Source: a virus
Lineage: Duplodnaviria > Heunggongvirae > Uroviricota > Caudoviricetes
Strand: one strand, 5' to 3'
Length of the DNA stretch: 64,000 nucleotides
Virus record (IMG/VR): IMGVR_UViG_3300029610_000240
Made by a program: the position numbers and the translations under genes. Shown one piece after another: positions 11,233 through 59,177 of the stretch. Every line of letters starts with the position of its first letter. Position 1 is the stretch's first letter. The notes under the pieces are model-generated. The model did no database searches. It was not told where the DNA came from and saw only the letters and a program-made list of their open reading frames with translations.

Positions 11233-11324
11233 GGACTATTTGCCGAGTAGTTCACGAAAATAGAGCACCAGAGATATCCACAGTCAATTTGACTGTGGAT
11301 ATCTAACAAAGGAGAATAATTTTT

Positions 11325-12146: not shown

Positions 12147-12332
12147 GAAGGATGATTCCACAGTCTTTTGGCTGTGGGATTTTTGTATATCTTTAGAATT
12201 TTAGAATAATTTCATAAAATACGCATAAAATAAAAAATATGACACATATTGATAAAAAATATGATTTTTAGTATAATAAAGGAGTGTTATTTCGTGAATT
12301 ACGAATTTAAAATTTCAAGGGGGAAAGAGAAA

Positions 12333-13451: not shown

Positions 13452-13465
13452 AAGGGGATAAAACA

Positions 13466-19460: not shown

Positions 19461-19772
19461 ATGAAACAGTATATCGGAATAAAGGTTGTTGCTGCGAGAC
19501 CAATGACAAGAGGTGACTATAATATCTTTCGAGGATGGCAGATTCCGGCAGACGAAGATCCTGCCGATGAAGGATATGTGATGAAATACGAGAATGGACA
19601 TGTGCAATGGTTGCCAAAGGATATGTTTGAGTCTGACTATAAAGAATATGACGAGAGTACCCTGCCGGCAACAGCTATTGGTATGGTAAGTTCAGATTAC
19701 AAAGAATGTTTTCAGGCAGAGTACAAGCAGCTCAGAATTCGTTATGAAAAATTGAAGAGAATGCGTCAATAA
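19461..19772 (+). CDS. hypothetical small protein
   Basis: ATG at 19461 behind GGAGAAAGGAG. Its stop codon directly abuts the IscB element's left hairpin. Confidence 0.5.
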   Translation: MKQYIGIKVVAARPMTRGDYNIFRGWQIPADEDPADEGYVMKYENGHVQWLPKDMFESDYKEYDESTLPATAIGMVSSDYKECFQAEYKQLRIRYEKLKRMRQ

Positions 19773-20044
19773 CCCCGACCTACAGTAATAACTGTTGAGG
19801 TCGGAGCTTGTAAAAGCTCATATTGACTAGCCTAAGTTCTTCGAGAACTACGTTGTTTATGTTATCACACCTGCGAATGATACCATAGTTTGCAGCCTTG
19901 TGTAGGCTCTGTAAAAGTTCTGTGAGGTAGGAACGGTCAACCTAGTATGTTCGATCACGACAAGCATTTACAACATTGGCGAAGGGTAACAAACTTTCAA
20001 AAGAAAGGGACAGCACTTGAGAGTAGCTGTCAAAGGTAAAAACT
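19773..20044 (+). ncRNA. IscB omega-RNA region
   Basis: About 270 nt of non-coding, visibly GC-richer and hairpin-rich sequence immediately 5' of iscB, which is the known position of IscB omega-RNAs. Confidence 0.65.
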
Positions 20045-23446: not shown

Positions 23447-23600
23447 CATCCTCTCCCATCTATAGAGGTGGGAGCTTCCCTAACCTCGGCAGGTTTGGTT
23501 CTCGTTCGATAGCACCAATGTGCTAAGCTTAAGCGAGCTAACCCCGTGTGTCCCACGGTTGTATTATGTGAAATTGTGGTTATGCAGTTACTATCCGCAT
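23447..23600 (-). ncRNA. TnpB omega-RNA region
   Basis: Sequence overlapping and extending past the 3' end of tnpB, GC-richer than its surroundings, ending at the element-end hairpin. Confidence 0.55.
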
Positions 23601-32730: not shown

Positions 32731-32802
32731 TGATGATGACTTAATTGATGATTTAAGACAAAGTTTTAAAAATATGTAACAGATATATGTAAAAACAAAT
32801 GG
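32731..32802 (+). CRISPR. guide module A: one spacer-like segment plus one repeat
   Basis: Repeat GTTTTAAAAATATGTAACAGATATATGTAAAAACAAATGG (32763..32802), preceded by TGATGATGACTTAATTGATGATTTAAGACAAA. Confidence 0.6.
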
Positions 32803-32804
32803 CA

Positions 32805-32872
32805 GTTACATAATGCGTAAGAATAAGAATGTATCGAATAAGTCTATATAAGTAGAATCTACCAGGTGGTAG
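32805..32872 (+). ncRNA. tracrRNA-like scaffold A
   Basis: Anti-repeat GTTACATAATGCGTAAGAAT pairs with ATATGTAAC of the repeat. Nexus AAGAATGTATCGAAT. Hairpins TCTA/TAGA and CTACC-AGG-TGGTAG (32859..32872). Confidence 0.65.
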
Positions 32873-32904
32873 AAAATATTAAAACTAACAGGAGATAATA
32901 TTTC

Positions 32905-36133: not shown

Positions 36134-36277
36134 GTTTTGTAATCGTGTAAAAGCACTTAAATATGCTGTAGAAGATGTTTTGTTACTGTGCAACGGAAAT
36201 ATGTCTAAATGATTTAATTTATTACTACTTTTTATTCCTTTGTTTTGTAACCGTGTAACGGAGACATGTCTAAATGG
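36134..36277 (+). CRISPR. guide module B mini-array (3 repeats)
   Basis: Repeats at 36134..36165 (decayed), 36177..36212 and 36242..36277 (GTTTTGTAACCGTGTAACGGAGACATGTCTAAATGG). Spacers are 11 nt and 29 nt (TTTAATTTATTACTACTTTTTATTCCTTT). Confidence 0.7.
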
Positions 36278-36356
36278 TCAAATTATTTTGCACGGTGCGT
36301 AAAAATAAGAAATTATCGAATAGGCTCGTTAAAACGAGAGCTGCCGTGTGGCAGTA
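36278..36356 (+). ncRNA. tracrRNA-like scaffold B
   Basis: TCAAATTATT linker. Anti-repeat TTGCACGGTGCGTAAAAAT pairs with ACCGTGTAA. Nexus AAGAAATTATCGAAT. Hairpins CTCGT-TAAA-ACGAG and CTGCC-GTGT-GGCAG. Confidence 0.75.
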
Positions 36357-36499
36357 AATCTAAGCTACATCAATTTCAAGATTATAATTTGGGAGGAGAA
36401 AATGTTTGGGAAAATTAATGTTTTTTATTTATTGTTGGCTATATATTTGTATTATTTGTTATATTCTTGCAGCCAAGAACAAGAAAGAAGGTGTAGTGT

Positions 36500-45959: not shown

Positions 45960-46126
45960 AATATTGTAATTTTGTAATAAATATATATTAATGTGGGGGC
46001 ATTACATAAATAATGAAATAAAAAGGCGTATTATATTGAAAAAAGTATCAAAAAGTGTTAGCATATTACATATAGACAAGAGAATTCAGAAAAACAAAAT
46101 GTGTATTTTATAAGGAGGATACTTAC

Positions 46127-49100
46127 GTGCAGAATGGATTTTTAGGAATAACTGTTAGTAGTGAACAGGTTGGTTGGGCAGTTACAAATCCCAAATATGA
46201 GTTAGAACGTGCATCTCGAAAAGATTTATGGGGTGTAAGGCTTTTTGATAAAGCAGAAACAGCGGAAGATCGAAGAATGTTCCGTACAAACAGACGATTA
46301 AATCAGAGAAAAAAGAACAGAATACATTATCTTAGAGATATTTTCCATGAGGAAGTAAATCAAAAAGATCCTAACTTTTTTCAGCAATTAGATGAAAGCA
46401 ATTTCTGTGAAGATGATCGTACTGTAGAGTTTAATTTTGATACTAATCTTTATAAGAATCAGTTTCCAACAGTGTATCATTTAAGAAAATATCTAATGGA
46501 AACAAAAGATAAACCAGATATTCGTCTGGTATACTTAGCTTTTTCAAAATTTATGAAAAATCGAGGACATTTCTTATACAAAGGAAATCTTGGAGAGGTT
46601 ATGGACTTTGAAAATTCCATGAAAGGCTTTTGTGAAAGTTTAGAGAAATTTAATATTGACTTCCCTACATTATCAGATGAACAGGTAAAAGAAGTCCGAG
46701 ATATCTTATGTGATCATAAAATTGCTAAAACTGTGAAAAAGAAAAACATCATTACTATTACAAAAGTAAAAAGTAAGACAGCAAAAGCATGGATTGGACT
46801 GTTTTGTGGTTGCAGCGTTCCTGTTAAAGTATTATTTCAGGATATCGATGAAGAAATTGTAACGGATCCAGAAAAAATCTCATTTGAAGATGCTTCTTAT
46901 GATGATTGTATTGCAAATATTGAAAAGGGTGTCGGTATTTATTATGAAGCTATTGTTTCTGCAAAGATGCTTTTTGACTGGTCTATCCTGAATGAAATTT
47001 TAGGTGACCATCAGTTATTAAGTGATGCAATGATCGCAGAATACAATAAGCATCATGATGATTTAAAGCGTTTACAGAAGATCATTAAAGGAACTGGCAG
47101 TAGAGAATTATATCAGGATATCTTTATTAATGATGTTTCTGGAAATTATGTATGCTACGTTGGTCATGCAAAAACAATGAGTAGTGCAGATCAGAAACAG
47201 TTTTATACATTTTTAAAAAATCGATTAAAAAATGTGAATGGTATTTCATCAGAAGATGCAGAATGGATTGATACAGAGATTAAAAACGGTACTTTACTAC
47301 CAAAACAGACAAAACGTGATAACAGTGTTATTCCGCATCAATTACAGTTAAGGGAATTTGAATTAATTCTTGATAACATGCAGGAAATGTATCCATTCTT
47401 AAAAGAAAACAGAGAAAAATTATTAAAAATCTTCAATTTCGTTATTCCTTATTATGTAGGTCCGCTAAAGGGCGTTGTAAGAAAAGGAGAGAGTACAAAC
47501 TGGATGGTGCCTAAAAAAGATGGTGTGATTCATCCATGGAATTTCGATGAAATGGTAGACAAAGAAGCGTCTGCGGAATGTTTTATTTCCCGAATGACAG
47601 GAAATTGTAGTTATTTATTTAATGAAAAAGTTCTTCCAAAGAATTCTCTTCTTTATGAGACATTTGAGGTATTAAATGAGCTAAATCCATTAAAGATCAA
47701 TGGAGAACCTATCAGCGTGGAATTAAAACAGAGAATTTATGAACAGCTTTTCTTGACAGGGAAAAAAGTTACAAAAAAATCTCTGACAAAATATCTTATC
47801 AAGAATGGCTATGACAAAGATATTGAATTATCAGGTATTGATAATGAATTTCACAGCAATCTAAAATCTCATATTGATTTTGAGGATTACGATAATCTAT
47901 CTGATGAAGAAGTTGAACAGATTATTCTTAGAATTACAGTATTTGAAGATAAGCAGCTGTTAAAAGATTATTTAAATCGCGAGTTTGTAAAGCTCTCTGA
48001 GGATGAGAGAAAACAGATTTGCTCATTATCTTATAAAGGATGGGGAAACTTATCAGAAATGCTATTAAACGGTATTACTGTAACAGATTCCAATGGTGTA
48101 GAAGTTTCTGTAATGGATATGCTGTGGAATACAAACTTAAATCTGATGCAGATCTTAAGTAAGAAATATGGATATAAAGCAGAAATCGAACATTACAATA
48201 AAGAACATGAAAAAACCATTTATAATCGTGAAGATTTGATGGATTATTTAAATATTCCACCGGCTCAGCGTAGGAAGGTAAATCAGCTGATTACGATAGT
48301 AAAATCTCTCAAAAAGACATATGGAGTTCCAAATAAGATTTTCTTCAAAATAAGCAGAGAACATCAGGATGATCCAAAGAGAACTTCATCCAGAAAAGAA
48401 CAGCTAAAATATTTATACAAATCCTTAAAATCAGAAGATGAAAAACATCTTATGAAAGAGCTTGATGAATTGAACGATCATGAATTATCCAATGATAAAG
48501 TTTATCTTTATTTTCTACAGAAAGGACGCTGCATTTATTCTGGCAAGAAATTAAATCTTTCAAGATTAAGAAAATCTAATTATCAGAATGATATTGACTA
48601 CATTTATCCATTATCTGCAGTAAATGATCGTTCTATGAATAATAAGGTATTAACGGGAATCCAGGAGAATCGAGCAGACAAGTATACCTATTTTCCAGTT
48701 GATTCAGAAATTCAGAAAAAAATGAAGGGATTTTGGATGGAACTGGTTCTGCAGGGATTTATGACAAAGGAGAAATACTTCCGATTATCCAGAGAAAATG
48801 ATTTTTCAAAGAGCGAACTTGTTAGCTTTATTGAACGTGAAATTTCAGATAATCAGCAAAGTGGAAGAATGATTGCTTCTGTATTACAGTATTATTTCCC
48901 TGAATCAAAGATTGTATTTGTAAAAGAAAAGCTGATTTCTTCCTTTAAGAGGGATTTCCATTTAATTAGTAGTTATGGTCACAATCATTTACAAGCTGCA
49001 AAAGATGCTTATATTACGATTGTAGTTGGAAATGTATATCATACAAAATTTACAATGGACCCAGCAATCTATTTTAAGAATCATAAGAGAAAAGATTATG

Positions 49101-50065
49101 ATCTGAACCGATTATTCTTAGAAAATATCAGCAGAGATGGACAGATTGCATGGGAAAGTGGTCCATATGGGTCAATTCAGACGGTTCGAAAAGAATATGC
49201 TCAAAACCATATTGCTGTTACAAAAAGAGTCGTGGAAGTAAAAGGCGGCTTATTTAAGCAGATGCCATTAAAAAAAGGACATGGCGAATATCCATTAAAA
49301 ACCAATGATCCTAGATTTGGCAATATCGCACAGTATGGAGGGTATACGAATGTCACAGGTTCCTATTTTGTATTAGTAGAATCAATGGAGAAAGGGAAAA
49401 AACGTATTTCTTTAGAATATGTTCCAGTATATCTTCATGAGCGTTTAGAGGATGATCCTGGACATAAACTGTTAAAAGAATATCTGGTTGATCACAGAAA
49501 ACTTAATCATCCAAAGATTTTACTTGCAAAAGTAAGAAAAAACTCATTACTTAAGATTGACGGTTTTTATTATCGTTTAAATGGTCGAAGTGGAAATGCT
49601 CTTATCCTTACAAATGCAGTGGAATTGATCATGGATGACTGGCAGACAAAAACAGCAAACAAGATTTCTGGATACATGAAACGCAGAGCTATTGATAAGA
49701 AAGCAAGGGTTTATCAAAATGAATTCCATATTCAGGAATTAGAACAGCTTTATGATTTTTATTTAGATAAATTAGAGAATGGTGTTTATAAAAATCGTAA
49801 GAATAATCAGGCTGAATTAATTCACAACGAAAAAGAACAGTTTATGGAACTCAAGACAGAAGATCAGTGTGTATTATTGACTGAGATTAAAAAGCTTTTT
49901 GTATGTTCTCCAATGCAGGCAGACCTTACATTGATTGGTGGCAGCAAACACACAGGAATGATTGCTATGTCAAGCAATGTTACAAAAGCAGATTTTGCAG
50001 TCATTGCGGAAGATCCTTTAGGACTTAGAAACAAAGTAATTTATTCTCATAAAGGTGAGAAGTAA
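46127..50065 (+). CDS. cas9: Cas9 homologue (type II-A-like size) with substituted RuvC and HNH catalytic residues
   Basis: GTG start 7 nt after AAGGAGGA. Conserved: bridge helix RRMFRTNRRLNQRKKNRIHYLRDIF, FPTVYHLRKYL, NRGHFLYKG, IPHQLQL, IPYYVGPL, PWNFDEMVDKEASAECFISRMT, YKGWGNLS. Catalytic columns: LGITVSSEQVGWAV (D10 is T), IFFKISREHQ (E762 is K), DIDYIYPLS (H840 is Y), QAAKDAYITIVVG (H983 is A, D986 kept). Confidence 0.9.
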   Translation: MQNGFLGITVSSEQVGWAVTNPKYELERASRKDLWGVRLFDKAETAEDRRMFRTNRRLNQRKKNRIHYLRDIFHEEVNQKDPNFFQQLDESNFCEDDRTVEFNFDTNLYKNQFPTVYHLRKYLMETKDKPDIRLVYLAFSKFMKNRGHFLYKGNLGEVMDFENSMKGFCESLEKFNIDFPTLSDEQVKEVRDILCDHKIAKTVKKKNIITITKVKSKTAKAWIGLFCGCSVPVKVLFQDIDEEIVTDPEKISFEDASYDDCIANIEKGVGIYYEAIVSAKMLFDWSILNEILGDHQLLSDAMIAEYNKHHDDLKRLQKIIKGTGSRELYQDIFINDVSGNYVCYVGHAKTMSSADQKQFYTFLKNRLKNVNGISSEDAEWIDTEIKNGTLLPKQTKRDNSVIPHQLQLREFELILDNMQEMYPFLKENREKLLKIFNFVIPYYVGPLKGVVRKGESTNWMVPKKDGVIHPWNFDEMVDKEASAECFISRMTGNCSYLFNEKVLPKNSLLYETFEVLNELNPLKINGEPISVELKQRIYEQLFLTGKKVTKKSLTKYLIKNGYDKDIELSGIDNEFHSNLKSHIDFEDYDNLSDEEVEQIILRITVFEDKQLLKDYLNREFVKLSEDERKQICSLSYKGWGNLSEMLLNGITVTDSNGVEVSVMDMLWNTNLNLMQILSKKYGYKAEIEHYNKEHEKTIYNREDLMDYLNIPPAQRRKVNQLITIVKSLKKTYGVPNKIFFKISREHQDDPKRTSSRKEQLKYLYKSLKSEDEKHLMKELDELNDHELSNDKVYLYFLQKGRCIYSGKKLNLSRLRKSNYQNDIDYIYPLSAVNDRSMNNKVLTGIQENRADKYTYFPVDSEIQKKMKGFWMELVLQGFMTKEKYFRLSRENDFSKSELVSFIEREISDNQQSGRMIASVLQYYFPESKIVFVKEKLISSFKRDFHLISSYGHNHLQAAKDAYITIVVGNVYHTKFTMDPAIYFKNHKRKDYDLNRLFLENISRDGQIAWESGPYGSIQTVRKEYAQNHIAVTKRVVEVKGGLFKQMPLKKGHGEYPLKTNDPRFGNIAQYGGYTNVTGSYFVLVESMEKGKKRISLEYVPVYLHERLEDDPGHKLLKEYLVDHRKLNHPKILLAKVRKNSLLKIDGFYYRLNGRSGNALILTNAVELIMDDWQTKTANKISGYMKRRAIDKKARVYQNEFHIQELEQLYDFYLDKLENGVYKNRKNNQAELIHNEKEQFMELKTEDQCVLLTEIKKLFVCSPMQADLTLIGGSKHTGMIAMSSNVTKADFAVIAEDPLGLRNKVIYSHKGEK

Positions 50066-50106
50066 GTTTTCATATTTGTTCGGAAAATTCATAATCATAT
50101 CGAACG

Positions 50107-50259
50107 GCTTTGGAACTGCGTAGAACATGATATGTCTTATGGCTAAAAGAATTACAGGTGCATATTTTGAACTGTGTAAAACATGGCATATGGGAGAATT
50201 GGCAACGACTGGAACAGAACACAGTTTTGAAACTGTATAAAACATGACATGTCTTATGG
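50107..50259 (+). CRISPR. guide module C mini-array (3 repeats), starting 42 nt after the cas9 stop
   Basis: Repeats at 50107..50142 (6 mismatches), 50164..50193 (30 nt, decayed) and 50224..50259 (GTTTTGAAACTGTATAAAACATGACATGTCTTATGG). Spacers: 21 nt CTAAAAGAATTACAGGTGCAT and 30 nt GAGAATTGGCAACGACTGGAACAGAACACA. Confidence 0.75.
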
Positions 50260-50336
50260 TTCAAATTATTTATACAGTACGTGAAAATAAGAAATTATCG
50301 AATAAACTCGTTTAGACGAGAACTGCTAGAGGCAGT
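50260..50336 (+). ncRNA. tracrRNA-like scaffold C
   Basis: Anti-repeat TTTATACAGTACGTGAAAAT gives a 10-bp perfect pairing with ACTGTATAAA. Nexus AAGAAATTATCGAAT. Hairpins CTCGT-TTAG-ACGAG and CTGC-TAGAG-GCAG (50323..50335). Confidence 0.8.
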
Positions 50337-50352
50337 AATTGCAGAAAATGTC

Positions 50353-50385
50353 ATGAACCCCAAGCGACTTCGTCGGCCGGGGGTT
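50353..50385 (+). terminator. GC-rich hairpin after module C
   Basis: AACCCC..CGAC-TTC-GTCG..GGGGTT nested stem followed by a short T run. Confidence 0.45.
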
Positions 50386-50448
50386 TACGCACCAATTTGA
50401 TAATATTTCTAATCATATATTACCTTATATGATTAATGGAGAAAATAG

Positions 50449-50595
50449 ATGTTTCAAGTAAAAAATAAAGAAACTGGGCAAGAATATACCGTATATGCTG
50501 TCGGGGATGAATATCTGACAAAATTTCTGATTTATGAAGATGGACATTGGAAATGGCAGACTATAGATGATTTTGTTCCAGTGATTGTAGATTAA
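50449..50595 (+). CDS. 48-aa hypothetical protein
   Basis: ATG behind GGAGAAAATAG. Product MFQVKNKETGQEYTVYAVGDEYLTKFLIYEDGHWKWQTIDDFVPVIVD. Below the ORF-track cut-off. Confidence 0.4.
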   Translation: MFQVKNKETGQEYTVYAVGDEYLTKFLIYEDGHWKWQTIDDFVPVIVD

Positions 50596-50612
50596 GAAAG
50601 CGAGAAATTCAC

Positions 50613-50957
50613 ATGAAGATTACAAGAACGATTAAATTTAAAGAATATATCCTCGGATATTTAGAAAAATTAGAGGTTCATGAAGTTCGACGCATTGAAA
50701 AAGCCGGACGATTAAGCCGTGACATTATCAAAGAGGAATCTGAAAAATGCGGACACAAATTAATGATTCTTGATACGATTGAAAAAGAAAGACGTTATGA
50801 ATGTTCATTAGAAGATTTCTTATCCGTTGCAAGAGAGATTCCACTAAAAAATCAGGAGACTGTTAATACAGAAGAAAAAAATGTTCAGGAAGATAATTCA
50901 GAGGATTCTAAGTCTAAGTTAGGCGATTCTGACTGTGCCCCTTGGATTGAAGATTAA
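50613..50957 (+). CDS. hypothetical protein
   Basis: 114-aa ORF lying between guide modules C and D. Confidence 0.5.
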   Translation: MKITRTIKFKEYILGYLEKLEVHEVRRIEKAGRLSRDIIKEESEKCGHKLMILDTIEKERRYECSLEDFLSVAREIPLKNQETVNTEEKNVQEDNSEDSKSKLGDSDCAPWIED

Positions 50958-50961
50958 TGTT

Positions 50962-51117
50962 ATTTTGAGAAATGATTGCAAATGTGATCGTAGCGTACCT
51001 TACTTCACAGCTTAGTTTTGGAACTATGTAAAATCAAATGATTGCAAATGGGCAGAGAGAAAATTTGAAAAATTGTCTGTGTTTTGGAACTATGTAAAAT
51101 CAAATGATTGCAAATGG
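50962..51117 (+). CRISPR. guide module D mini-array (3 repeats)
   Basis: Repeats at 50962..50985 (internally deleted), 51015..51051 and 51081..51117 (GTTTTGGAACTATGTAAAATCAAATGATTGCAAATGG). Spacers: GATCGTAGCGTACCTTACTTCACAGCTTA and GCAGAGAGAAAATTTGAAAAATTGTCTGT. Confidence 0.8.
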
Positions 51118-51193
51118 TCAAAGTAATTGCATGGCGTGTAAAAATAAGAATTTATCGAAATAATTTGCTCCGGCGAAATCTGCAAGATGCAGA
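51118..51193 (+). ncRNA. tracrRNA-like scaffold D
   Basis: TCAAAGTAA linker. Anti-repeat TTGCATGGCGTGTAAAAAT pairs with CTATGTAA through two G:U. Nexus AAGAATTTATCGAAAT. Hairpins TTTGC-TCCG-GCGAA and TCTGC-AAGA-TGCAGA. Confidence 0.75.
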
Positions 51194-51197
51194 AATC

Positions 51198-51265
51198 AAG
51201 CTGATCGATGCTTTACATATTTATCTATTTCAATATTTCTTCAACCATATACATTGATCAGCTTT
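51198..51265 (+). terminator. long-loop inverted repeat with AGCTGATC core (possible terminator)
   Basis: AAGCTGATCGATG pairs with CATTGATCAGCTT (13 bp, one G:U) around a 42-nt loop. A related element lies at 54054..54131. Confidence 0.4.
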
Positions 51266-51290
51266 AATAAAAAGAATTAAAATTACGAAA

Positions 51291-51445
51291 ATAAAATTGA
51301 ATGATTCCAATGGATAGTCGAAAAAGAATTGGATAGTCGACGGGTTTTAGAATAGTGTAAAATTGAATGATTCTAAGGGTTAGATACTCCACTAGATAGC
51401 AAAGTACTTGTTTTAGAATAGTGTAAAATTAAATGATTCTAAGGG
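51291..51445 (+). CRISPR. guide module E mini-array (3 repeats)
   Basis: Repeats at 51292..51313 (3' half only), 51344..51379 (GTTTTAGAATAGTGTAAAATTGAATGATTCTAAGGG) and 51410..51445. Spacers: ATAGTCGAAAAAGAATTGGATAGTCGACGG and TTAGATACTCCACTAGATAGCAAAGTACTT. Confidence 0.8.
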
Positions 51446-51528
51446 GTCAAATAGATTCTATACAATGCGTGAAAATAAGAAACTTATCGAACAAACCTGT
51501 GTAGGAAACAGGAACTGCCGAGGGCAGT
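51446..51528 (+). ncRNA. tracrRNA-like scaffold E
   Basis: GTCAAATAGAT linker, anti-repeat TCTATACAATGCGTGAAAAT, nexus AAGAAACTTATCGAAC. Hairpins CCTGT-GTAGGAA-ACAGG and CTGCC-GAG-GGCAG (51515..51527). Confidence 0.75.
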
Positions 51529-51823
51529 AAAAATAAAAAGCATATTTTTATTATGTTTTATTTTATGATGAAGAGGTGGATGATGGTTCTATCTCTGTTT
51601 TTGAGAAAATGGATGCATTGCAAAATGCAACAATCTTAGAAGTACAAATACATATTGATGACTTAAAAGATAAATTGGAAGAAGTAAAATTTACTCTTAA
51701 AATATCAGGTTTGTATTTGAAGAAGATAATTTTATGGATTCTTATTATAAATCTTATACGTTACCGATTGTATATCACAAAAACTATTTATTAAGTATTA
51801 ACAATGATAAGGAATAACAATAA

Positions 51824-53755
51824 ATGGAAATAGATTACAGAAAAGAATTAAATAAGAGTCAATATGAAGCTGTTACAACGACAGAAGGACCAGTCCTAAT
51901 CCTTGCCGGTGCCGGAACTGGCAAAACTCGTTGTATGGTATATCGTGTGGCATATCTGATTGAAAAAGGCGTGTCACCCAATAATATCTTATTATTGACC
52001 TTTACAAATAAAGCAGCAAATGAAATGAAGCAAAGGGCAGCAGATATGCTTGATGAACGATGTAGTCAAATTACTGCATGTACATATCATTCATTCTGTG
52101 CAAAGATGCTTCGCAAATATTCACAACTGATTGGAATTCAATCAGATTATACAATTATTGATCCGGGAGATTGTGCAGATATCATATCGATCATCGAAAC
52201 AGAACACGGTATGGATAAAGTAAAAGATTTTCCAAGATCATCTCAACTGGTATCAGCACATAGCAAAGCCTTAAATACGAATCAGTCATTAGAGGATACT
52301 TTGTTTGATATGCTCGGTAAATGGAAGTATATGGAAATCGAAAGATTCATTCCAGATATAAAGAAAATCTTAGCGGATTATCAATCATACAAAAAACAAA
52401 ACAACATGATGGATTATGATGATTTGCTAATCAATTTTATATCTGTATTGAAAAGAAACCCTTCTATAAAGAATAAATTAGCTGATATTTATCAGTATAT
52501 TATGATCGACGAATATCAGGATTCTAATTATTTACAGGAAAAGATTATTTTTATGTTACGTGAAAAGAATCGTAACTTAGCAGTGGTAGGTGATGATTAC
52601 CAATGCATCTATGGATTTAGAGGAAGTATGGTAGAAAATATCATTAATTTTCCACAAAAGATGTCCGGATGTAAAGTTGTTTACTTAACACAGAATTATC
52701 GCAGCAATCAAGAGATCATGGATTTATCCAATATTGTTATGAAAAAACATTCACTGGAAGGTTTTTTTAAAAAGCTTGTCGCAACTCATGTGGCCAATAT
52801 TCAGCCATTGCTAGTTCGATCAGAGGACGAGGGCGAAGAAGCTTCTTATATTTTAAATAAGATTATGGCATTACATGATGAAGAAGAGATTCCGTATCAT
52901 GAAATTTGTGTTCTTGAAAGAAGTTCTTATCATTCTGTAAGACTAGAAGCACTTTTAAATAAAATGAAAATCCCATATGACAAATATGGTGGAATGAAGT
53001 TTTTTGATTATGATCATATCAAAAACTTCTTATGCTTTTTGCGATGTCAGATAAATCCACATGATGAAATTGCGTGGTTTCGACTATTAAAGTTATTTGA
53101 TGGTATTGGAAATGTTTATGCCAGAAATATCGCAGCAACATGTAAAACTCTTGGATTAGAGGGACTTGTTCAACACAAATACATAAAAAGAAAATTTCAG
53201 CCGGATCTTGAAAATTTAAAGAGTTTTATTGAAAAGCTTAATGATCAAGATTTTCAGATCGAATTGCAAAGCATTAAATCATTTTATTCACGTTTAATGG
53301 ACATTACATTAATGCTGATGAAAACATCGGAGAAGAAACGTAGGGAGCTTGCTAGAGCAAATAAACAAGCGGTCCGCGATTTTGATACACTGATTGAAAT
53401 GGCAGATGGATATGATTCTCCAGTGACATTTCTGGAAGAAATAATGCTTGAAGCCAGTCCTCAGAAAGAGGAAGAGGAAGATCGAATGGTTATATCTACA
53501 ATTCATTCCGCAAAAGGCTTAGAGTTTCACTCTGTTTTTGTTATGAACTGCGTAGATACAATGTTTCCATCTACAGATAAAGATCAGATTGGAACAGTAG
53601 AAGATAACGAAGAGTTGAGATGCTTCTATGTGGCAATAACACGGGCAAAAGAACGATTATTTTTAATGGCACCGAAATATATAGCCAAATTTGGATGTGT
53701 TGAAGAGGGAATTATCTCCCATTTTATTAGTGATGTTTTTCAAGTAAAGGAGTAA
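51824..53755 (+). CDS. UvrD/PcrA-type SF1 DNA helicase
   Basis: Walker A AGAGTGKT, motif II IMIDEYQDSN, QNYRSNQEI, late STIHSAKGLEF and FYVAITRAKERL. Confidence 0.85.
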   Translation: MEIDYRKELNKSQYEAVTTTEGPVLILAGAGTGKTRCMVYRVAYLIEKGVSPNNILLLTFTNKAANEMKQRAADMLDERCSQITACTYHSFCAKMLRKYSQLIGIQSDYTIIDPGDCADIISIIETEHGMDKVKDFPRSSQLVSAHSKALNTNQSLEDTLFDMLGKWKYMEIERFIPDIKKILADYQSYKKQNNMMDYDDLLINFISVLKRNPSIKNKLADIYQYIMIDEYQDSNYLQEKIIFMLREKNRNLAVVGDDYQCIYGFRGSMVENIINFPQKMSGCKVVYLTQNYRSNQEIMDLSNIVMKKHSLEGFFKKLVATHVANIQPLLVRSEDEGEEASYILNKIMALHDEEEIPYHEICVLERSSYHSVRLEALLNKMKIPYDKYGGMKFFDYDHIKNFLCFLRCQINPHDEIAWFRLLKLFDGIGNVYARNIAATCKTLGLEGLVQHKYIKRKFQPDLENLKSFIEKLNDQDFQIELQSIKSFYSRLMDITLMLMKTSEKKRRELARANKQAVRDFDTLIEMADGYDSPVTFLEEIMLEASPQKEEEEDRMVISTIHSAKGLEFHSVFVMNCVDTMFPSTDKDQIGTVEDNEELRCFYVAITRAKERLFLMAPKYIAKFGCVEEGIISHFISDVFQVKE

Positions 53756-53791
53756 TTTATAGTGAAATGCTTAAATTATGTTGTCAATGTG

Positions 53792-53965
53792 GATTTGAAT
53801 CCATGTAAAAATGTAAAGCAAATGATTCCAAATGGCAATCTTCTCGAATTGTCGTGTAGGCAAAGTTTTGAAACCATGTAAAAAAATGATTCCAAATGGG
53901 TATGCATTGGTGTTTGAAGCGTTTGTGTGTTTTGGAACCATGTAAAAGCAAATGATTCCAAATGG
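53792..53965 (+). CRISPR. guide module F mini-array (3 repeats)
   Basis: Repeats at 53792..53835 (internal duplication), 53865..53899 (2-nt deletion) and 53929..53965 (GTTTTGGAACCATGTAAAAGCAAATGATTCCAAATGG). Spacers: CAATCTTCTCGAATTGTCGTGTAGGCAAA and GTATGCATTGGTGTTTGAAGCGTTTGTGT. Confidence 0.8.
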
Positions 53966-54043
53966 TTAAAAGCAGATTACATGGTGTGTCAAAATAAGAA
54001 CTTATCGAATAGATCTATATAAATGGAATCTGCCAGGTGGCAG
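53966..54043 (+). ncRNA. tracrRNA-like scaffold F
   Basis: Anti-repeat TTACATGGTGTGTCAAAAT gives a 9-bp perfect pairing with ACCATGTAA. Nexus AAGAACTTATCGAAT. Hairpin 2 CTGCC-AGGT-GGCAG (54030..54043). Hairpin 1 is weak and resembles that of scaffold A. Confidence 0.75.
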
Positions 54044-54053
54044 AAAAAAACTG

Positions 54054-54131
54054 AAAAAGCTGATCAATAATAACTGTTGTTACCATAATATTAATTTATG
54101 TTTTTGTATTTTGTCTATTGATCAGCTTTTT
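54054..54131 (+). terminator. 16-bp perfect long-loop inverted repeat with AGCTGATC core
   Basis: AAAAAGCTGATCAATA pairs perfectly with TATTGATCAGCTTTTT around a 46-nt loop. Confidence 0.5.
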
Positions 54132-54133
54132 GC

Positions 54134-55411
54134 ATGAAAATGAAAGTTATAAATATGGCAATGAAGAAAGTCGGTGATGATAAATTGAGAAGAAAAGTAG
54201 TCAGTTTTTTACTTGTTACACTTATGATGGCAACGATCACTCCTGTACATGCAGATGAGGTGTCAGAACCAACAACTGCTGCGACAGAAGTTACAACAAC
54301 AGAAACGAAGCCGACTACGACAGAAAAAAAAGAAACAACTCATCATAAGGAAAAAACAGTAAAAAAAGATAAGAAAACAAAAAAGAAAAATACTAAAAAA
54401 GATGGGAAAAAGAAAAGTAAACAAAAAGAAAAATCTAAAAAAAAGGAAAACAAAAAATCAACAATTCCGATGCCTAAACGGGCTGTAAAGAAAAAAGGTT
54501 GTGATACTGTACAAAAGAAGATTGTAAAAATGCAATCAAAGATTAAAAAGTTGCAGAAAGAACAAAAAAATATCCGAAAAGAGATCAAAAAAGAAAATAA
54601 TAAAAAAGAAGCACTGCAGCGATTTTATCAGCAATATCCTACAGAGCGTGAAGCAACTATGAAACTGCGAGGACAAAAGATTACACCTCTTACTAAGATT
54701 TCAGAGGAAGACGATGCATTAAGAAATAGATTATTCAGTTTAGCTAATACATTTCATGACGATCAACTACGTAAAATTGCCTCTGAGTACGTCTTTGGCG
54801 TAAGAGATCTTAATTTTGAAGACCTGTTAAACGAGGATGATACCATTGACCTTAATACATATTTAAAAGGCAAATATATTGCTCCAACGCAGAATATGCA
54901 GATAGGAATTAAAAATAAGGATCAAGAAATTCAAAAATTAAAGAAACAGATCAAAGAGGAAAAGAAAACCAGATTTTTTGATCCGAAAAACGTAAATTCT
55001 ATTAGCAATATTACAGTTGATGATGCTAAAAAGATGTTGTCTGGAACGCAATTATATCCAGAAGCAGAAGCTTTTGTTAAAGCAGAAAGAATTCATCATG
55101 TAAATGCAGTCTTTTTAATGGGAATTGCTGCACATGAAAGTGCCTGGGGAACAAGCCGGCGTGCCAGAGAAGATAATAATTTAACTGGATATGGAGTTTA
55201 CTCAGATAGTGCAAAGGGCATCAATAAGACAAGCAAAGAAGAAGGATTATTAGCCACCGCTGAGACATTGCACGAACGATACTTAACCCCTGGAGGCAGC
55301 TATTACGAAGGAACTTCCGTTGCTGATGTAAATAAACATTATTGTGTCGGAAATGAATGGGCCGGAGCGGTAGTTGGTTATGCTTATCAATTAATGAATA
55401 AACTAAATTAG
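54134..55411 (+). CDS. secreted Lys-rich protein with C-terminal GH73-type glucosaminidase domain
   Basis: Signal peptide and K/E-rich low-complexity linker. AVFLMGIAAHESAWGTSRRAREDNNLTGYGV is the FlgJ/GH73 catalytic region. Confidence 0.75.
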   Translation: MKMKVINMAMKKVGDDKLRRKVVSFLLVTLMMATITPVHADEVSEPTTAATEVTTTETKPTTTEKKETTHHKEKTVKKDKKTKKKNTKKDGKKKSKQKEKSKKKENKKSTIPMPKRAVKKKGCDTVQKKIVKMQSKIKKLQKEQKNIRKEIKKENNKKEALQRFYQQYPTEREATMKLRGQKITPLTKISEEDDALRNRLFSLANTFHDDQLRKIASEYVFGVRDLNFEDLLNEDDTIDLNTYLKGKYIAPTQNMQIGIKNKDQEIQKLKKQIKEEKKTRFFDPKNVNSISNITVDDAKKMLSGTQLYPEAEAFVKAERIHHVNAVFLMGIAAHESAWGTSRRAREDNNLTGYGVYSDSAKGINKTSKEEGLLATAETLHERYLTPGGSYYEGTSVADVNKHYCVGNEWAGAVVGYAYQLMNKLN

Positions 55412-55543
55412 ATATCATCAAAGAGGTTTTGGTTAACTAAAGGTTGATTATCGGTATATCATTGTTCGGTGTCTGTAGACAGCATTTTTTCAAATCTATA
55501 GTTGTTATAAAATAAGAGACACTTTCATGTATAGTGGAGTTTA

Positions 55544-55570
55544 GTTTCAGAAGTTTATAAAAACAGATAA
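55544..55570 (+). CRISPR. guide module G: single divergent repeat
   Basis: GTTTCAGAAGTTTATAAAAACAGATAA, preceded by the candidate guide GAGACACTTTCATGTATAGTGGAGTTTA. Confidence 0.5.
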
Positions 55571-55580
55571 CTATTAATGA

Positions 55581-55658
55581 TTATCTGTTTCATGGATTGT
55601 GTAAAAATAAGCAAATTAGCGAATATGCTCGTTGAAACGAGAGCTGTTAGATAACAGC
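55581..55658 (+). ncRNA. tracrRNA-like scaffold G
   Basis: TTATCTGTTT pairs perfectly with AAACAGATAA across a 10-nt loop. GATTGTGTAAAAAT, nexus variant AAGCAAATTAGCGAAT. Hairpins CTCGT-TGAA-ACGAG and GCTGTTA-GA-TAACAGC. Confidence 0.6.
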
Positions 55659-55710
55659 TAAAAATGTAACTATATAAATTAATTTGTAAATTATAGGGAG
55701 GACTATTTTA

Positions 55711-55866
55711 GTGAAACACGGTAAAGTTCCAACAAGAAATCAAAAAGAACTTATGTTAAAAAATAATCTTAATCCGAAAGAATGGCTGGTTGTAAAGAAA
55801 ATGGCGGATGGATTTGAGATTGTTAATAGAGAAAATGAAGCAGATCGTAAATTTCTGTATTGTTAA
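55711..55866 (+). CDS. 51-aa small protein
   Basis: GTG start behind GGGAGGA. Product MKHGKVPTRNQKELMLKNNLNPKEWLVVKK.. resembles small conserved proteins of Firmicutes mobile elements, recalled from memory. Below the ORF-track cut-off. Confidence 0.45.
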   Translation: MKHGKVPTRNQKELMLKNNLNPKEWLVVKKMADGFEIVNRENEADRKFLYC

Positions 55867-55875
55867 GGTGAAATA

Positions 55876-56091
55876 ATGATGGATATTTACACAAGATTAT
55901 TGATGATGGATATTATGATATCGGCAGTAGCTATTATGGTAAATATCTTAGAAAATTGTCCGATTAACGGTAAAATACACAATATTTCAAGAATTTTAAT
56001 CATATCTAGTATTGCTGCAGACATTATCTTACTTTTAGGAATTGTCAATACGTTCATCTCATACAGTATCCTGTATTCTTATTTTAAATAA
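55876..56091 (+). CDS. small membrane protein
   Basis: 71 aa with two hydrophobic helices. Its stop overlaps the first, partial repeat of module H. Confidence 0.45.
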   Translation: MMDIYTRLLMMDIMISAVAIMVNILENCPINGKIHNISRILIISSIAADIILLLGIVNTFISYSILYSYFK

Positions 56092-56094
56092 GAT

Positions 56095-56249
56095 ACAGAA
56101 GAATCATTGTCGATGTTAAACATATTATGTGAAACATTATTGTCAGGCTTTAGAAGTCTATAAAACAGAATCATTGTCAATGAGATCAAATTCTTTATGA
56201 CAACGCAATACAGCTTTAGAAGTCTATAAAACAGAATCATTGTCAATGG
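56095..56249 (+). CRISPR. guide module H mini-array (3 repeats)
   Basis: Repeats at 56095..56115 (3' half only), 56147..56183 and 56213..56249 (GCTTTAGAAGTCTATAAAACAGAATCATTGTCAATGG). Spacers: TTAAACATATTATGTGAAACATTATTGTCAG and GATCAAATTCTTTATGACAACGCAATACA. Confidence 0.8.
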
Positions 56250-56325
56250 TCAAATAAGCAGACTGCGTAAAAATAAGAATTTTATCGATATTGCTCGTGT
56301 AGTCGAGAACTGCCAAGTGGCAGCA
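56250..56325 (+). ncRNA. tracrRNA-like scaffold H
   Basis: TCAAATAAG linker, anti-repeat CAGACTGCGTAAAAAT, nexus AAGAATTTTATCGAT. Hairpins CTCG-TGTAGT-CGAG and CTGCC-AAGT-GGCAG (56310..56323). The next gene's RBS follows 18 nt later. Confidence 0.75.
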
Positions 56326-56352
56326 ACATTTATAATAAAAAGGAGGAATTAT

Positions 56353-57006
56353 ATGCGAAAACAAGTTTTTGCAACGATTGGTTGTGCTATCTTTTTACTG
56401 ATCGTAGTAGGTTTCCTGATGATGGCATATTCTTCTTATACAAAACATCAAGAGGAAATTGCTGAACAAAAATTAATAAAGCAGGAAAGAAAAGAATCAC
56501 GAAAAACACTTCAATCATCAGAAGAAAGGGAATGGAATCTGGACTGCCTGTGGGAGCATGTTATCGAAATTGATGGTACAGAAATTGAAGTACCAATTAA
56601 ATACAATGATCTGATCAAGACACTTGGAAACAAAGTGAAAGAAGCTAAAGATAAAAAAATCATGCTACAAAATGGACAGGTTTTATGGCTGAATTGTACA
56701 AAAGATGAAAAAGACTCTATGAATAATGGAAAAGATAAAGCAATGGTTTATGGTATATCTACACAACAGGACGCTAAAGATTCTTGTGTTACAATTCAGA
56801 AAATCAAAACTGGAATGTCTTATGATAAATTAAAGGAATATTATGAGACTCCAGTTACGAAAGATGATTCCCAAAGTATTTCTGTACTGCAATATGCTGA
56901 TCCGAAATCTGATTTAGATATCACACAGCAGAATGTGACTGTTTATCTGGATAACAATACAGTGGTTGGATTAGGTATATATTATGACGGAAGTAAGGAG
57001 GAATAG
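56353..57006 (+). CDS. membrane-anchored hypothetical protein
   Basis: ATG at 56353 behind AAAGGAGGA. One N-terminal TM helix. Confidence 0.55.
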   Translation: MRKQVFATIGCAIFLLIVVGFLMMAYSSYTKHQEEIAEQKLIKQERKESRKTLQSSEEREWNLDCLWEHVIEIDGTEIEVPIKYNDLIKTLGNKVKEAKDKKIMLQNGQVLWLNCTKDEKDSMNNGKDKAMVYGISTQQDAKDSCVTIQKIKTGMSYDKLKEYYETPVTKDDSQSISVLQYADPKSDLDITQQNVTVYLDNNTVVGLGIYYDGSKEE

Positions 57007-57007
57007 G

Positions 57008-57238
57008 ATGGAAAATAAAAATAAACCAAACCAAGAATTATTAACTATTAAAGAAACGGCAAAATTATTAAAAGTAAATCCACATAGAGTATATGACTTA
57101 GTGAGAATGGGAATTTTGCCAGCACTAAAATTAGGAAGCCTGAAAATACGAAGACAGGCATTAAATGAATTCCTTGAAGAATATGAAGGGATGGATCTGA
57201 CAGATTTAAATGAGATCAAAAAATTAGAAGTTAAATAA
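57008..57238 (+). CDS. excisionase-type HTH DNA-binding protein
   Basis: ATG behind AAGGAGGA. LLTIKETAKLLKVNPHRVYDLVRMGILPALKLGSLKIRRQALNEF is the excisionase/MerR-like winged helix. Confidence 0.7.
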   Translation: MENKNKPNQELLTIKETAKLLKVNPHRVYDLVRMGILPALKLGSLKIRRQALNEFLEEYEGMDLTDLNEIKKLEVK

Positions 57239-57660
57239 AAAGGAGCTGTTATGTCGGGATAATCTGATATAATAGCTCTTTTTTTGTAGCAAATTCTAAA
57301 TACTAATTAACAAATTAACTATATTATAAAGGATAATTTGATGATGGTAAATAATGAAGTCCCACGTCAGGCCCACGGAGAGTGCGGCACGAATAAGCAC
57401 GTATATGCATAATATACATAAAAATAGCATGCGTGATACGTTCTGGTTGTGAAAAATATACGAAAAAAGCACAAAATAACACGATATAACATAGGTAGTC
57501 ATTCGCAGTTGGGTTGGGTAACAACCCAATGGTAGGAGCTACAGTAGCTGTAGCTGTATCTATTGAGGAAGCTGCTAAAGCAGGTAAATTCTAGGAAACC
57601 ACGTATTTAAGCGGTTTTTTGAGGGTGTTAGAAGTGGTAAAAAGTAGTGAAATGTAGACA

Positions 57661-57704
57661 ATCTCTATATTATCTCTACACTATCTCTATACCACATCTC
57701 TACA
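57661..57704 (+). repeat. four direct ATCTCTA(T/C)A repeats (candidate recombinase arm sites)
   Basis: Copies start at 57661, 57672, 57683 and 57696 (spacing 11, 11, 13 bp), about 65 bp beyond the 3' end (stop) of the integrase gene. Confidence 0.5.
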
Positions 57705-57769
57705 CTCAAAAATGTGAATAAGAAGAGAGAGCCAATTAATTTTGACTCTCTTTTTTTCTTCGTTTTATT

Positions 57770-59011
57770 TTATTTTATTTTCATGATCTCGGCCATTAGC
57801 CACTCTGGTTTTCGTTTTGTGTAAGTAGCTTCTGTGATATCGTTGATCTTGTGACCCATCATATATTTTAATGCATATTCATCTACTTTATCTCTTTTTG
57901 CCATCGTGGAAAACTGAATCCTTGGATCATGAGCTCTGTGATCTGGATTGAGCTCTAATTTCTTAACAATCTTTTCGAATCGATGTCTATATTTATCATA
58001 CGTCATTTTTAAGCTACTTCGGTGTGTTTTTGTATCAGTGCAGTTGATTAAATAATCACTTCCAAGATTTATTGCTTCCTGGTATCGATGCTTGACTAGA
58101 TCACGAATCCGTGGATGGATTGGAACCAAGCGATCTTTACCTGCGTCAGTCTTCATACCGCCGATAAAAAACCAATTTTCCAGATCTACATTTTTTAATT
58201 CAATTAGACCCAATTCTTGTGGTCGCCATCCAGAGTAGCATTGGATCAGAATCACATCCACATAATCAGTATCATACAAATGATCCCATAATTTTTTTAT
58301 TTCTTCATCCGTAAAATCAATATGGTCCTTCTTCGCTTCTTTAACATCTTTAATAACATCATCAGACAAATTAAAGGTCCTTGCATAATTCTTGTCTACT
58401 AATTCATACTCTAGCGCATAATCCAACATTAAGTTGAATAGAGATTTTATCTTTGTCTTTGTAGTAGGAGATGCGTGTTTTTCTTTACCATCGACTACAT
58501 ACGTTCCATCTTCCATACAACCTTTAATATGTCGGGCACGTAAATCTTTTGCACGCATATCATAAACAGCAGAGCAGTAGTTCCAGGCAGATTTAATTGT
58601 ACGTTCACTTGAAGGACTTGACAGGGATTCAAAATATTTATCAGTCCACTTTTCGTATAATTGCTCGACTGTCAGATCAGAGTCAAGATCATACGGATTT
58701 TTATGATATTCAAGTAATGCAGCGTAAGCATCATTATAGGTTTTGAAATATGTTTCTGGTTTCAATGATTTATAAATAGGTTTTCCATAAAAATTTTTTC
58801 CAACACAGACTAATGCACGAAAAGGCTTTCTAAGATTTTGATTTTTTAATTCGGATATAGTGCCAAATCCATTTGGAAGACGTTTTCGTTTATTAGTTTT
58901 TCTTTGTTGTTGTTTAATAACTTTTGTATCTAGAGGATAACCGCAGTGAGGACAAGTTATTGCCTTATCACTTACCTGCAATTGACATTCTGGACATTTG
59001 ATCAGTGCCAT
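57770..59011 (-). CDS. tyrosine recombinase/integrase with N-terminal zinc ribbon
   Basis: CPECQ..CPHCG at the N-terminus. C-terminal catalytic pattern RAHDPRIQF..MMGHKINDITEATYTKR (R..HxxR..Y). Confidence 0.85.
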   Translation of the reverse strand: MALIKCPECQLQVSDKAITCPHCGYPLDTKVIKQQQRKTNKRKRLPNGFGTISELKNQNLRKPFRALVCVGKNFYGKPIYKSLKPETYFKTYNDAYAALLEYHKNPYDLDSDLTVEQLYEKWTDKYFESLSSPSSERTIKSAWNYCSAVYDMRAKDLRARHIKGCMEDGTYVVDGKEKHASPTTKTKIKSLFNLMLDYALEYELVDKNYARTFNLSDDVIKDVKEAKKDHIDFTDEEIKKLWDHLYDTDYVDVILIQCYSGWRPQELGLIELKNVDLENWFFIGGMKTDAGKDRLVPIHPRIRDLVKHRYQEAINLGSDYLINCTDTKTHRSSLKMTYDKYRHRFEKIVKKLELNPDHRAHDPRIQFSTMAKRDKVDEYALKYMMGHKINDITEATYTKRKPEWLMAEIMKIK

Positions 59012-59177
59012 ATATCATCATTCCTTTCTAAAAAAGGGTACAAAAAATACACCCTTATCAATTTGTAATTTTGCAGGATGTATGATATAATTCTGGTGTT
59101 CAGGCAGAGATTACATCAATCACCCATGATTGATAATTTCTGAAATTCCGTCCAGTTGGTAGCTGGGCGGTTTTCTT

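Follow-up and report, generated by a model that had tools for sequence, protein, structure and literature searches.

Introduction

Among the closest described relatives of the system considered here are the canonical type II-A loci of the CRISPR systems, of the S. pyogenes type and represented among clostridia by a locus that we label L026. Our subject is module H, a short sequence at positions 56095-56323 of a 64,000-nt stretch of viral DNA (IMG/VR record IMGVR_UViG_3300029610_000240), which in its full length is referred to as the window. Module H, the seven similar modules in the window and a Cas9 homologue encoded on the same strand share much with the canonical systems: a protein of the TIGR01865 family, 36-nt repeats that start with GTTT and carry a central ATGTAAAA, 30-nt spacers, a repeat:anti-repeat duplex in which a bulge separates lower and upper stem, 3' hairpins that come after a junction of the AAUAAG type, and a motif resembling the leader end (ATTTGA) beside the repeat where new spacers appear. 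They differ from the canonical systems in that all four canonical catalytic residues of Cas9 are substituted, with the HNH domain deleted in relatives, and in the lack of cas1, cas2 and csn2. Instead of one array there are eight dispersed mini-arrays, each fused in cis on its 3' side to a private trans-activating CRISPR RNA (tracrRNA); the acquisition end is the tracr side, the leader-like motif is inverted, the tracr has no terminator, and the modules lie inside operons of a conjugative element. We consider it likely that module H is a guide-RNA gene for the nuclease-dead Cas9 of this element, and that the system is adaptive, acts by binding only and is aimed at phages or rival elements.

Natural fusions of guide and tracrRNA have been described. 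In S. pyogenes a single guide occurs naturally as the RNA tracr-L (Workman et al., bioRxiv 10.1101/2020.05.21.102756); the phage RNAs vsgRNA and rAcrIIA1 are naturally fused guides too (bioRxiv 10.64898/2026.06.01.729453; 10.64898/2026.06.03.729762). As in all three, guide, repeat, loop, anti-repeat and tracr tail are present here in one RNA, with a large loop as in tracr-L and carriage on a mobile element as with vsgRNA, and the outcome would likewise be binding without cleavage. The three known RNAs each use one fixed guide of 11-14 nt against the cas9 promoter, together with a nuclease-active host Cas9, whereas the guides described below are spacers of full length, exchangeable and placed at an array's end, and their presumed partner is the element's own dead Cas9.

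Effectors that lack nuclease activity against target DNA and that act by silencing, often on mobile elements, are known from type IV-A, with DinG, and from type V, in Cas12c and Cas12m. Type IV-A has no adaptation module and reportedly borrows one in trans. The present system resembles type IV-A in that a helicase gene adjoins that of the effector, and it differs from type IV-A, Cas12c and Cas12m in having a Cas9 effector (class 2, type II), in requiring a tracrRNA and in fusing the guide to the array. Viral and plasmid mini-arrays and solitary repeat units possess 1-3 spacers, lie away from a full cas operon and use host effectors, whereas the modules of the window have their own tracrRNA and their own effector. 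Lastly, RAGATH-30 (RF03055) is listed in Rfam as a small RNA candidate only. The 60-nt tail of module H matches this model end to end and above its gathering score, and the repeat, anti-repeat, spacers and the link to Cas9 lie outside the model. Fused natural guides, binding-only effectors of types IV and V and RAGATH-30 as an Rfam motif are already known. A literature search that covered few subscription journals, so that prior publication is possible, yielded no description of RAGATH-30 as a tracrRNA, no natural clade of dead or HNH-less Cas9 (including Cas9 with Tn916 and HNH-less Cas9 on integrative and conjugative elements) and no arrays fused to private tracrRNAs.

Module H is a mini-array fused to its own predicted tracrRNA

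Module H is a two-spacer mini-CRISPR array, the last repeat of which is fused to its own tracrRNA to make a putative natural single-guide RNA (sgRNA). All of its parts are on the plus strand. It begins with a truncated, degenerate repeat (ACAGAAGAATCATTGTCGATG, 56095-56115) that retains only the 3' half, with a GAA duplication, and that marks the old, trailer-like end of the array; truncated first repeats of this kind are also found in modules D, E and F. This is followed by spacer 1 (TTAAACATATTATGTGAAACATTATTGTCAG, 56116-56146), which is 31 nt long and the older of the two, by a 36-nt internal repeat (GCTTTAGAAGTCTATAAAACAGAATCATTGTCAATG, 56147-56182) and by spacer 2 (AGATCAAATTCTTTATGACAACGCAATACA, 56183-56212), the newer, tracr-proximal spacer of 30 nt that would serve as the guide of the cis-fused sgRNA. 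The terminal repeat (56213-56248) is an exact duplicate of the internal one and contains a lower-stem arm (56213-56217) and an upper-stem arm (56221-56225). The loop segment (GTCAAATAAGC, 56249-56259) opens with GTCAAAT (56249-56255) and leads to the anti-repeat (56260-56274), composed of AGACT for the upper stem, GCGUA for the bulge and AAAAU for the lower stem. In the tracrRNA-like tail (56267-56326), which is the match to RAGATH-30, the AAUAAG motif is accompanied by a nexus stem of 2 bp (56277-78 with 56285-86) and by hairpins 1 (56294-56307) and 2 (56310-56323). The two exact copies of the 36-mer are 66 nt apart, with none expected from 100 shuffles, so that two identical repeats, a truncated third and spacers of 31 and 30 nt together give the repeat and spacer pattern of a CRISPR array.

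The initial annotation of this region had the anatomy right, from the truncated repeat through both spacers and both repeats to the scaffold, with its short upper stem and its two hairpins; it did not identify these as a tracrRNA-fused CRISPR mini-array (RAGATH-30) that presumably belongs to a dead Cas9. Some of its particulars need adjustment. The partial repeat, placed there within or just after the stop of the gene at 55876-56091, lies just after it, 4 nt past the TAA at 56089-56091, and not within the gene. Spacer 1 was given exactly and spacer 2 without its first A. The C at position 2 of the repeat is indeed shared with the first repeat of module C (50107), and the upper stem, AGTCT (56221-56225) with AGACT (56260-56264), is not only short, as had been pointed out, but the shortest among the 17 module variants compared.

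The scaffold is RAGATH-30 and its fold is supported by covariation

The window was scanned at the Rfam gathering threshold, which for RAGATH-30 is 59.5 bits. The tail of module H scored 67.4 bits, over positions 1-59 of the 59 in the model, with an E-value of 1e-10 for the window. There are eight full-length matches in the window, all on the plus strand, and 18 more in related loci. Upstream of each of the eight lie between one and three type II-like repeats (GTTTTnGAA...), and the terminal repeat pairs in cis with an anti-repeat directly 5' of the GUAAAAAUAAG motif. In every module, nucleotides 1-5 of the terminal repeat pair with the AAAAU just 5' of AAUAAG, and from positions 9-13 of the repeat onwards the pairing is with a stretch a few nucleotides upstream of the AAAAU. 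The lower stem, bulge and upper stem of the Cas9 repeat:anti-repeat duplex are in this way formed in cis, across a loop of about 30 nt. Module H possesses the anti-repeat expected of a tracrRNA, with a lower stem of 4-5 bp and an upper stem of 5 bp. The scaffold is also homologous to the tracrRNA of canonical clostridial Cas9 loci.

Covariation was evaluated in an alignment of 17 different terminal units, of which the window supplied eight and related elements nine, counting pairs in the repeat:anti-repeat stems, the 2-bp nexus stem and the two hairpins, and comparing them with 500 shuffles. In the sgRNA-like fold 94.2% of the cells are paired, compared with 85.4 +/- 0.8% for the shuffled alignments and 33-55% when the partners are slid. 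Changes on both sides are present in 15 of the 26 pairs, and none of the 500 shuffles reaches the observed value for any of five measures. Helix 1 is 95% paired and helix 2 is 89% paired, with five of the nine upper-stem pairs changed on both sides. The upper stems are specific to each module, such that each array fits the anti-repeat of its own tracr, and orthologous copies of module C have the stems ACTGTATAAA/TTTATACAGT in the window and ACTATGTAAA/TTTACATAGT in the related locus L025.

Many of the repeats were also seen to be strongly self-complementary between their 5' and 3' halves, with energies down to -9 kcal/mol, which is not typical of type II repeats. Examples are at 53929-53964 and 51410-51445 in the window, at 5957-5992 in L005 and at 10357-10392 in L010. 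A self-hairpin of the repeat would compete with pairing to the anti-repeat; the module H repeat has no such fold (0.0 kcal/mol).

The Cas9 homologue has lost its catalytic residues and is under purifying selection

The presumed protein partner of module H is a Cas9 homologue of 1312 aa, encoded on the same strand 6.2 kb upstream (46127-50065). Pfam places in it a REC lobe (1.5e-138), a PI domain (2e-57), a bridge helix and HNH; with the NCBIfam model TIGR01865 it reaches 783 bits. The catalytic residues were read from an alignment with one solved Cas9 and with canonical relatives, which are about 42% identical. In RuvC-I the canonical GLDLGT is replaced by GITVSS (D10 to T), in RuvC-II FVEMARE by FFKISRE (E762 to K), in HNH DIDHIYP by DIDYIYP (H840 to Y) and in RuvC-III LHHAKDAY by LQAAKDAY (H983 to A). 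Neither RuvC nor HNH is thus intact. These substitutions are common to a clade of 71-100% identity, whereas the canonical relatives keep the catalytic motifs.

Some members of the clade have gone further. In 16 protein clusters (P0003-P0018, where P labels denote clusters of Cas9 proteins and L labels denote loci on other contigs), which are 96-99% identical and 1151-1159 aa long, the whole HNH domain has been deleted in frame. The deletion junctions are of at least two kinds, KIFFKI/VSFIERE and KIFF/IEREIS, the slash marking the join. HNH-deleted loci include L001 (Cas9 gene at 10001-13471), L012, L016, L018, L020 and L021, and their arrays still show spacer turnover. Pairwise dN/dS for Cas9, the ratio of nonsynonymous to synonymous divergence, is 0.06-0.16, with dS up to about 2. 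These values indicate purifying selection and therefore a long maintenance of the dead protein. The Cas9 protein cluster comprises 2780 member sequences from metagenomes; two scans of the representative genomes in GTDB revealed no relative of the window Cas9. The combination of a dead Cas9 with guide modules suggests RNA-guided silencing rather than cutting.

Spacers turn over, and new ones appear beside the tracr

Spacer content differs among elements in which Cas9 is 97-100% identical. In module H, both spacers are present in the window and in L025, and only spacer 1 in L012. Spacer 1 with two single-nucleotide polymorphisms (SNPs), without spacer 2, is found in L001, L016 and L018, and spacer 1 with a different second spacer in L021. 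In L003, with a Cas9 that is 89% identical, both spacer and repeat are different. In L005, with a Cas9 that is 74% identical, the corresponding position (8020-8090) retains only the nexus and the two hairpins, a decayed module from which repeat, anti-repeat and spacer are gone. Among relatives, spacer 1 varies at positions 13, 15 and 30. Modules B, D, E and F show the same pattern of turnover. The shared spacers adjoin the truncated 5' repeat, the differing or extra spacers adjoin the tracr, and additions are always tracr-proximal. This is the polarised variation of a CRISPR array. Modules C and G are invariant, and modules A and G have no array.

A sequence motif accompanies this behavior. 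Directly 3' of the terminal repeat, GGTCAAAT is found only in the array-bearing modules. When module H is read on the minus strand its GTCAAAT gives the junction ATTTGAC/CATT, and in the canonical relative L026, which has the gene order cas9-cas1-cas2-csn2, the junction of leader and repeat is ATTTGAG/GTTTGAGAA. The sequence ATTTGAG is the conserved leader end of group-1 type II-A systems, and the last 10 leader bases with one repeat are reported to suffice for adaptation (PMC5382924). By analogy, the GTCAAAT/ATTTGAC motif may have a role in spacer integration. Pfam scans of the window open reading frames (ORFs) of at least 120 aa revealed no cas1, cas2 or csn2; none was found in the related loci either, and all three are present in L026. 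Most likely a type II-A adaptation module acting in trans inserts the new spacers at the repeat next to the tracr. The newest spacer would thereby become the cis single guide.

These data bear on the idea that the locus is a decaying relic of a captured type II-A system, in which neither protein nor arrays function any longer. The loss of catalytic residues, the recurrent HNH deletions, the missing adaptation genes, the tail remnant at the module H position of L005 and the SNPs in spacer 1 are all what such decay might leave behind. A relic would not be expected, however, to show a dN/dS of 0.06-0.16 over a dS of up to about 2, perfectly identical repeats, compensatory changes in the stems, new spacers in elements that already lack HNH, or a protein cluster with 2780 members, and we regard a relic as a remote prospect.

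Genomic setting and transcription of the modules

All eight modules occupy short intergenic gaps between co-directional genes, so that the placement of module H is the rule and not a peculiarity. The others are likewise on the plus strand. Modules A (32733-32876) and G (55514-55660) each consist of a single guide and a scaffold, the guide of G being invariant. Module B (36134-36358) contains a degenerate repeat, an 11-nt spacer, a repeat, a 29-nt spacer, the terminal repeat and the tail. Module C (50107-50340) is directly 3' of cas9, with content that is constant among close relatives. Modules D (50959-51197), E (51290-51530) and F (53791-54047) have two spacers each, and the content of D and F varies widely among relatives. 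In module B the degenerate 32-nt repeat is separated from the next repeat by only 11 nt (CTGTAGAAGAT; the region is 36134-36241). This interval resembles the short guides of scaRNA or tracr-L, and it is retained in L012, where the additional spacer that the window has beside the tracr is missing.

No T-run or terminator follows the tail of any module, hairpin 2 of module H included, and the intrinsic terminator of a tracrRNA is accordingly missing. Promoter-like sites are not enriched (44 found, 39.5 +/- 6.1 expected). The repeats carry TGTAAAAT or TATAAA and might contain internal promoters of the type II-C kind; the promoter scan gave neither enrichment nor a conserved -35 sequence. The guides are probably cut out of operon transcripts. 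Downstream of module H is a gene for a 217-aa protein (56353-57006), with a ribosome-binding site (RBS) at 56339-56347 (AAAGGAGGA; 56339-56355 including the ATG at 56353). The reported distance of 18 nt from hairpin 2 to the RBS holds when measured to GGAGG and is 15 nt when measured to the A-run; the ATG is 29 nt from the hairpin. As had also been noticed, the start of the listed ORF is on the scaffold. It is a GTG (56317) in the loop of hairpin 2, and the gene calls of orthologues begin at the ATG at 56353 and give 217 aa. The initial annotation's view that the module runs straight into this gene agrees with cotranscription of the two, to which the 29-nt gap, the lack of a plus-strand promoter-like site within 55977-57196 and the lack of a terminator all point. 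A separate promoter and RBS for 56353-57006 are improbable because the gap between hairpin 2 and the ATG is only 29 nt.

A structured leader so close to a start codon might also act in cis, as a 5' untranslated region (UTR) controlling the translation or stability of the 217-aa gene, as was first suggested. The proximity of hairpin 2 to the RBS (15 nt), the lack of room for a separate promoter and the constant presence of this gene 3' of module H in relatives are in keeping with this suggestion. The same scaffold, however, precedes eight unrelated genes, and no part of it pairs with the RBS in the predicted fold. Moreover, L005 lacks repeat and anti-repeat, and between its tail remnant and the same gene are 170 nt of unrelated sequence; a UTR function would also leave spacer turnover unexplained. 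Scaffold-tuned translation is not needed to explain the element, and we judge a UTR switch to be highly improbable. Module H is better read as a guide-RNA gene inside an operon than as an odd structured UTR, and a guide-RNA gene so embedded raises the question of how the guide is excised from the messenger RNA without losing the downstream gene.

Searches for targets

The window guides were compared with the window itself, in which no 3' seed match of at least 11 nt was found elsewhere beyond one 13-mer, and with 13 related loci, which contained no match at up to four mismatches. Self-targeting was rejected, since there were no seed matches in the window beyond the 13-mer and none in the 13 related loci. 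Comparison of 46000-59100 by megablast with phage and plasmid collections, and of 16 window guides by blastn with phages and plasmids, gave nothing. Exact 20-mer scans of IMG/VR were also empty for both module H spacers, the variants of spacer 1, the module H spacers of L021 and L003 and the guides of modules G and C. A scan of JGI metagenomes with the 20-mer of spacer 2 produced two matches of 20-21 nt (L014 and L015), which had unrelated flanks and no shared protospacer-adjacent motif (PAM); these were rejected as targets because about one to two matches were expected by chance. The L015 match, of 20 nt (8174-8194 in OGNQ01000138.1), falls within a type I restriction-modification specificity (hsdS-like) gene and is the only one in a defence gene; it too was judged to be due to chance.

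The result was different for sister arrays. A further 33 spacers were taken from related elements, and two of them match phages of the human gut from end to end. The newest spacer of module D in L012 is identical at 29 of 30 positions to phage NatCom_43819, in a small ORF between DNA-polymerase and regulator genes, where pairing of the CRISPR RNA would be with the coding strand. L010 has an array of five spacers, the oldest of which agrees with a fecal phage scaffold at 28 of 30 positions. The PAM cannot be derived from these two sites because they belong to two different proteins.

The nature of the guides is relevant to the proposal that the modules are RNA anti-CRISPRs, sgRNA mimics that sequester or redirect an active host Cas9 and so protect the element. 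Precedents for RNAs of sgRNA shape on a mobile element are available (bioRxiv 10.64898/2026.06.01.729453; 10.64898/2026.06.03.729762), and homology of the scaffold to the tracrRNA of canonical clostridial Cas9 loci would suit a mimic. A vsgRNA, however, has a single guide of about 11-14 nt against the host cas9 promoter and no array, whereas module H has array spacers of 30-31 nt. The guides are thus full-length and subject to turnover rather than short and fixed, two sister spacers match phages, and no seed match to the cas9 upstream region was found, the module H spacers having none of at least 11 nt anywhere in the window. The element also has its own, matching Cas9 under strong purifying selection. 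We consider it very unlikely that the modules are decoys for a host enzyme. The decoy, UTR-switch and relic explanations are each contradicted by at least one of the following: purifying selection, spacer turnover, the possession of a Cas9 and the occurrence of the scaffold before eight unrelated genes.

The modules belong to a Tn916-family element

In related metagenome contigs the genes follow a conserved order: ATLF proteases, Cas9, modules C, D and E, a PcrA/UvrD-like helicase, module F, a glucosaminidase, module G, DUF6906, a 71-aa ORF, module H, the 217-aa gene, a Tn916-type Xis, a Tn916-type integrase and then unrelated host genes. This order, ending with Xis, integrase and host genes, places the modules at the right end of a Tn916-family integrative element. 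The neighbors of module H are DUF6906, the membrane-like 71-aa ORF, the 217-aa protein and Xis. Beyond these the window deviates. At 57240-59011 there is a gap of 530 bp and then a different tyrosine recombinase, which bears a zinc ribbon at its N-terminus and is encoded on the minus strand, at the site where the relatives have the Tn916-type integrase on the plus strand after Xis. An identical IMG/VR contig, L024, ends near window position 57283.

The helicase (51824-53755) deserves attention because binding could be a targeting step only, with a recruited partner that unwinds or degrades the target, and this protein is the candidate partner. Such recruitment has precedents in Cas3 of type I and DinG of type IV. 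The gene is syntenic with that of Cas9, and modules E and F flank it both in the window and in every relative of 89-100% identity. At 73-74% identity it is missing, from L005 and L010, which nevertheless keep the dead Cas9 and long arrays, and Pfam and NCBIfam identify no nuclease domain in it. The idea of a recruited partner, which we regard as unlikely, is weakened only by the two loci without the helicase.

A model for module H and the points against it

The observations may be combined as follows. Transcription of the rightward gene string would read through module H, in which neither a promoter nor a terminator is apparent. A natural sgRNA would be folded from spacer 2, the terminal repeat, a loop of 34 nt, the anti-repeat, the nexus and both hairpins, and spacer 1 with the internal repeat could pair with the same anti-repeat in trans. 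The guide RNA would then load the Cas9 homologue encoded about 6 kb upstream on the same Tn916-type integrative element. With REC lobe, bridge helix and PAM-interacting domain retained, the complex should bind complementary DNA and silence or block it without cutting. The outcome would be a natural counterpart of CRISPR interference (CRISPRi) by nuclease-dead Cas9 (dCas9). Adaptation would most likely be provided in trans by a host type II-A Cas1-Cas2-Csn2 module, and the targets are probably phages or rival elements.

Several points weigh against this model. The repeat:anti-repeat duplex of module H is weak, at -6.4 kcal/mol, compared with values down to -20 for other modules, and it has a C-A mismatch at position 2 of the lower stem. 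The minimum free energy fold of module H alone is no better than that of shuffled sequences (z = -0.76), and the same is true of the whole intergenic region. Since thermodynamics alone cannot support the fold, its support is taken from covariation. The loss of nuclease activity is predicted from residues, and D986 and N863 are retained in the window Cas9; within the clade of 71-100% identity P0020 is exceptional in still possessing the HNH histidine. No protospacer for either spacer of module H turned up in the window or in related loci, nor did the phage and plasmid collections and IMG/VR yield one. Finally, spacer 1 gathers SNPs among relatives, one of them in the seed, and may be decaying.

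Taken to the level of the clade, the model is more ambitious. It would posit a group of conjugative elements with a long-lived nuclease-dead Cas9, in some cases without HNH, that is programmed by private fusions of array and tracrRNA (RAGATH-30). Spacers would be captured in trans beside the tracr, the newest guide being a ready sgRNA, and the system would defend the element or its host by silencing, and not cutting, phages or rival elements. We think that the chances of this broader proposal are evenly balanced.

Other features of the window

The element carries a second RNA-guided system. At 19765-21319 a HEARO RNA (112 bits) is directly upstream of an IscB-type ORF of 424 aa with RRXRR and HNH domains. 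The cargo also includes a TnpB (OrfB_IS605 with a Cas12f-like TNB domain; 23580-24698, minus strand), two IS200-type Y1 transposases (7056-7493 and 17020-17433) and a restriction-modification pair (13979-16359) composed of an Eco57I-type methylase and a BsuBI/PstI-type restriction endonuclease. A protein of 1239 aa that has a transglutaminase core (7513-11232) contains many cysteine-rich tandem repeats of about 117 nt, which are the largest repeat families in the window.

Implications

The sgRNA and dCas9 are usually seen as laboratory inventions. Here both would be present together in nature, under selection and abundant in metagenomes, so that, if the model is correct, each would have a natural precedent. 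Type II would then join the CRISPR types with binding-only immunity on mobile elements, as the counterpart of type IV-A and of Cas12c and Cas12m, and the orphan Rfam RNA RAGATH-30 would acquire a function. The modules would represent a new array architecture in which the tracr takes the place of the leader and the newest spacer is the cis guide, and CRISPRi tools might draw on the compact scaffolds found in nature and on the Cas9 proteins of about 1150 aa that have no HNH.

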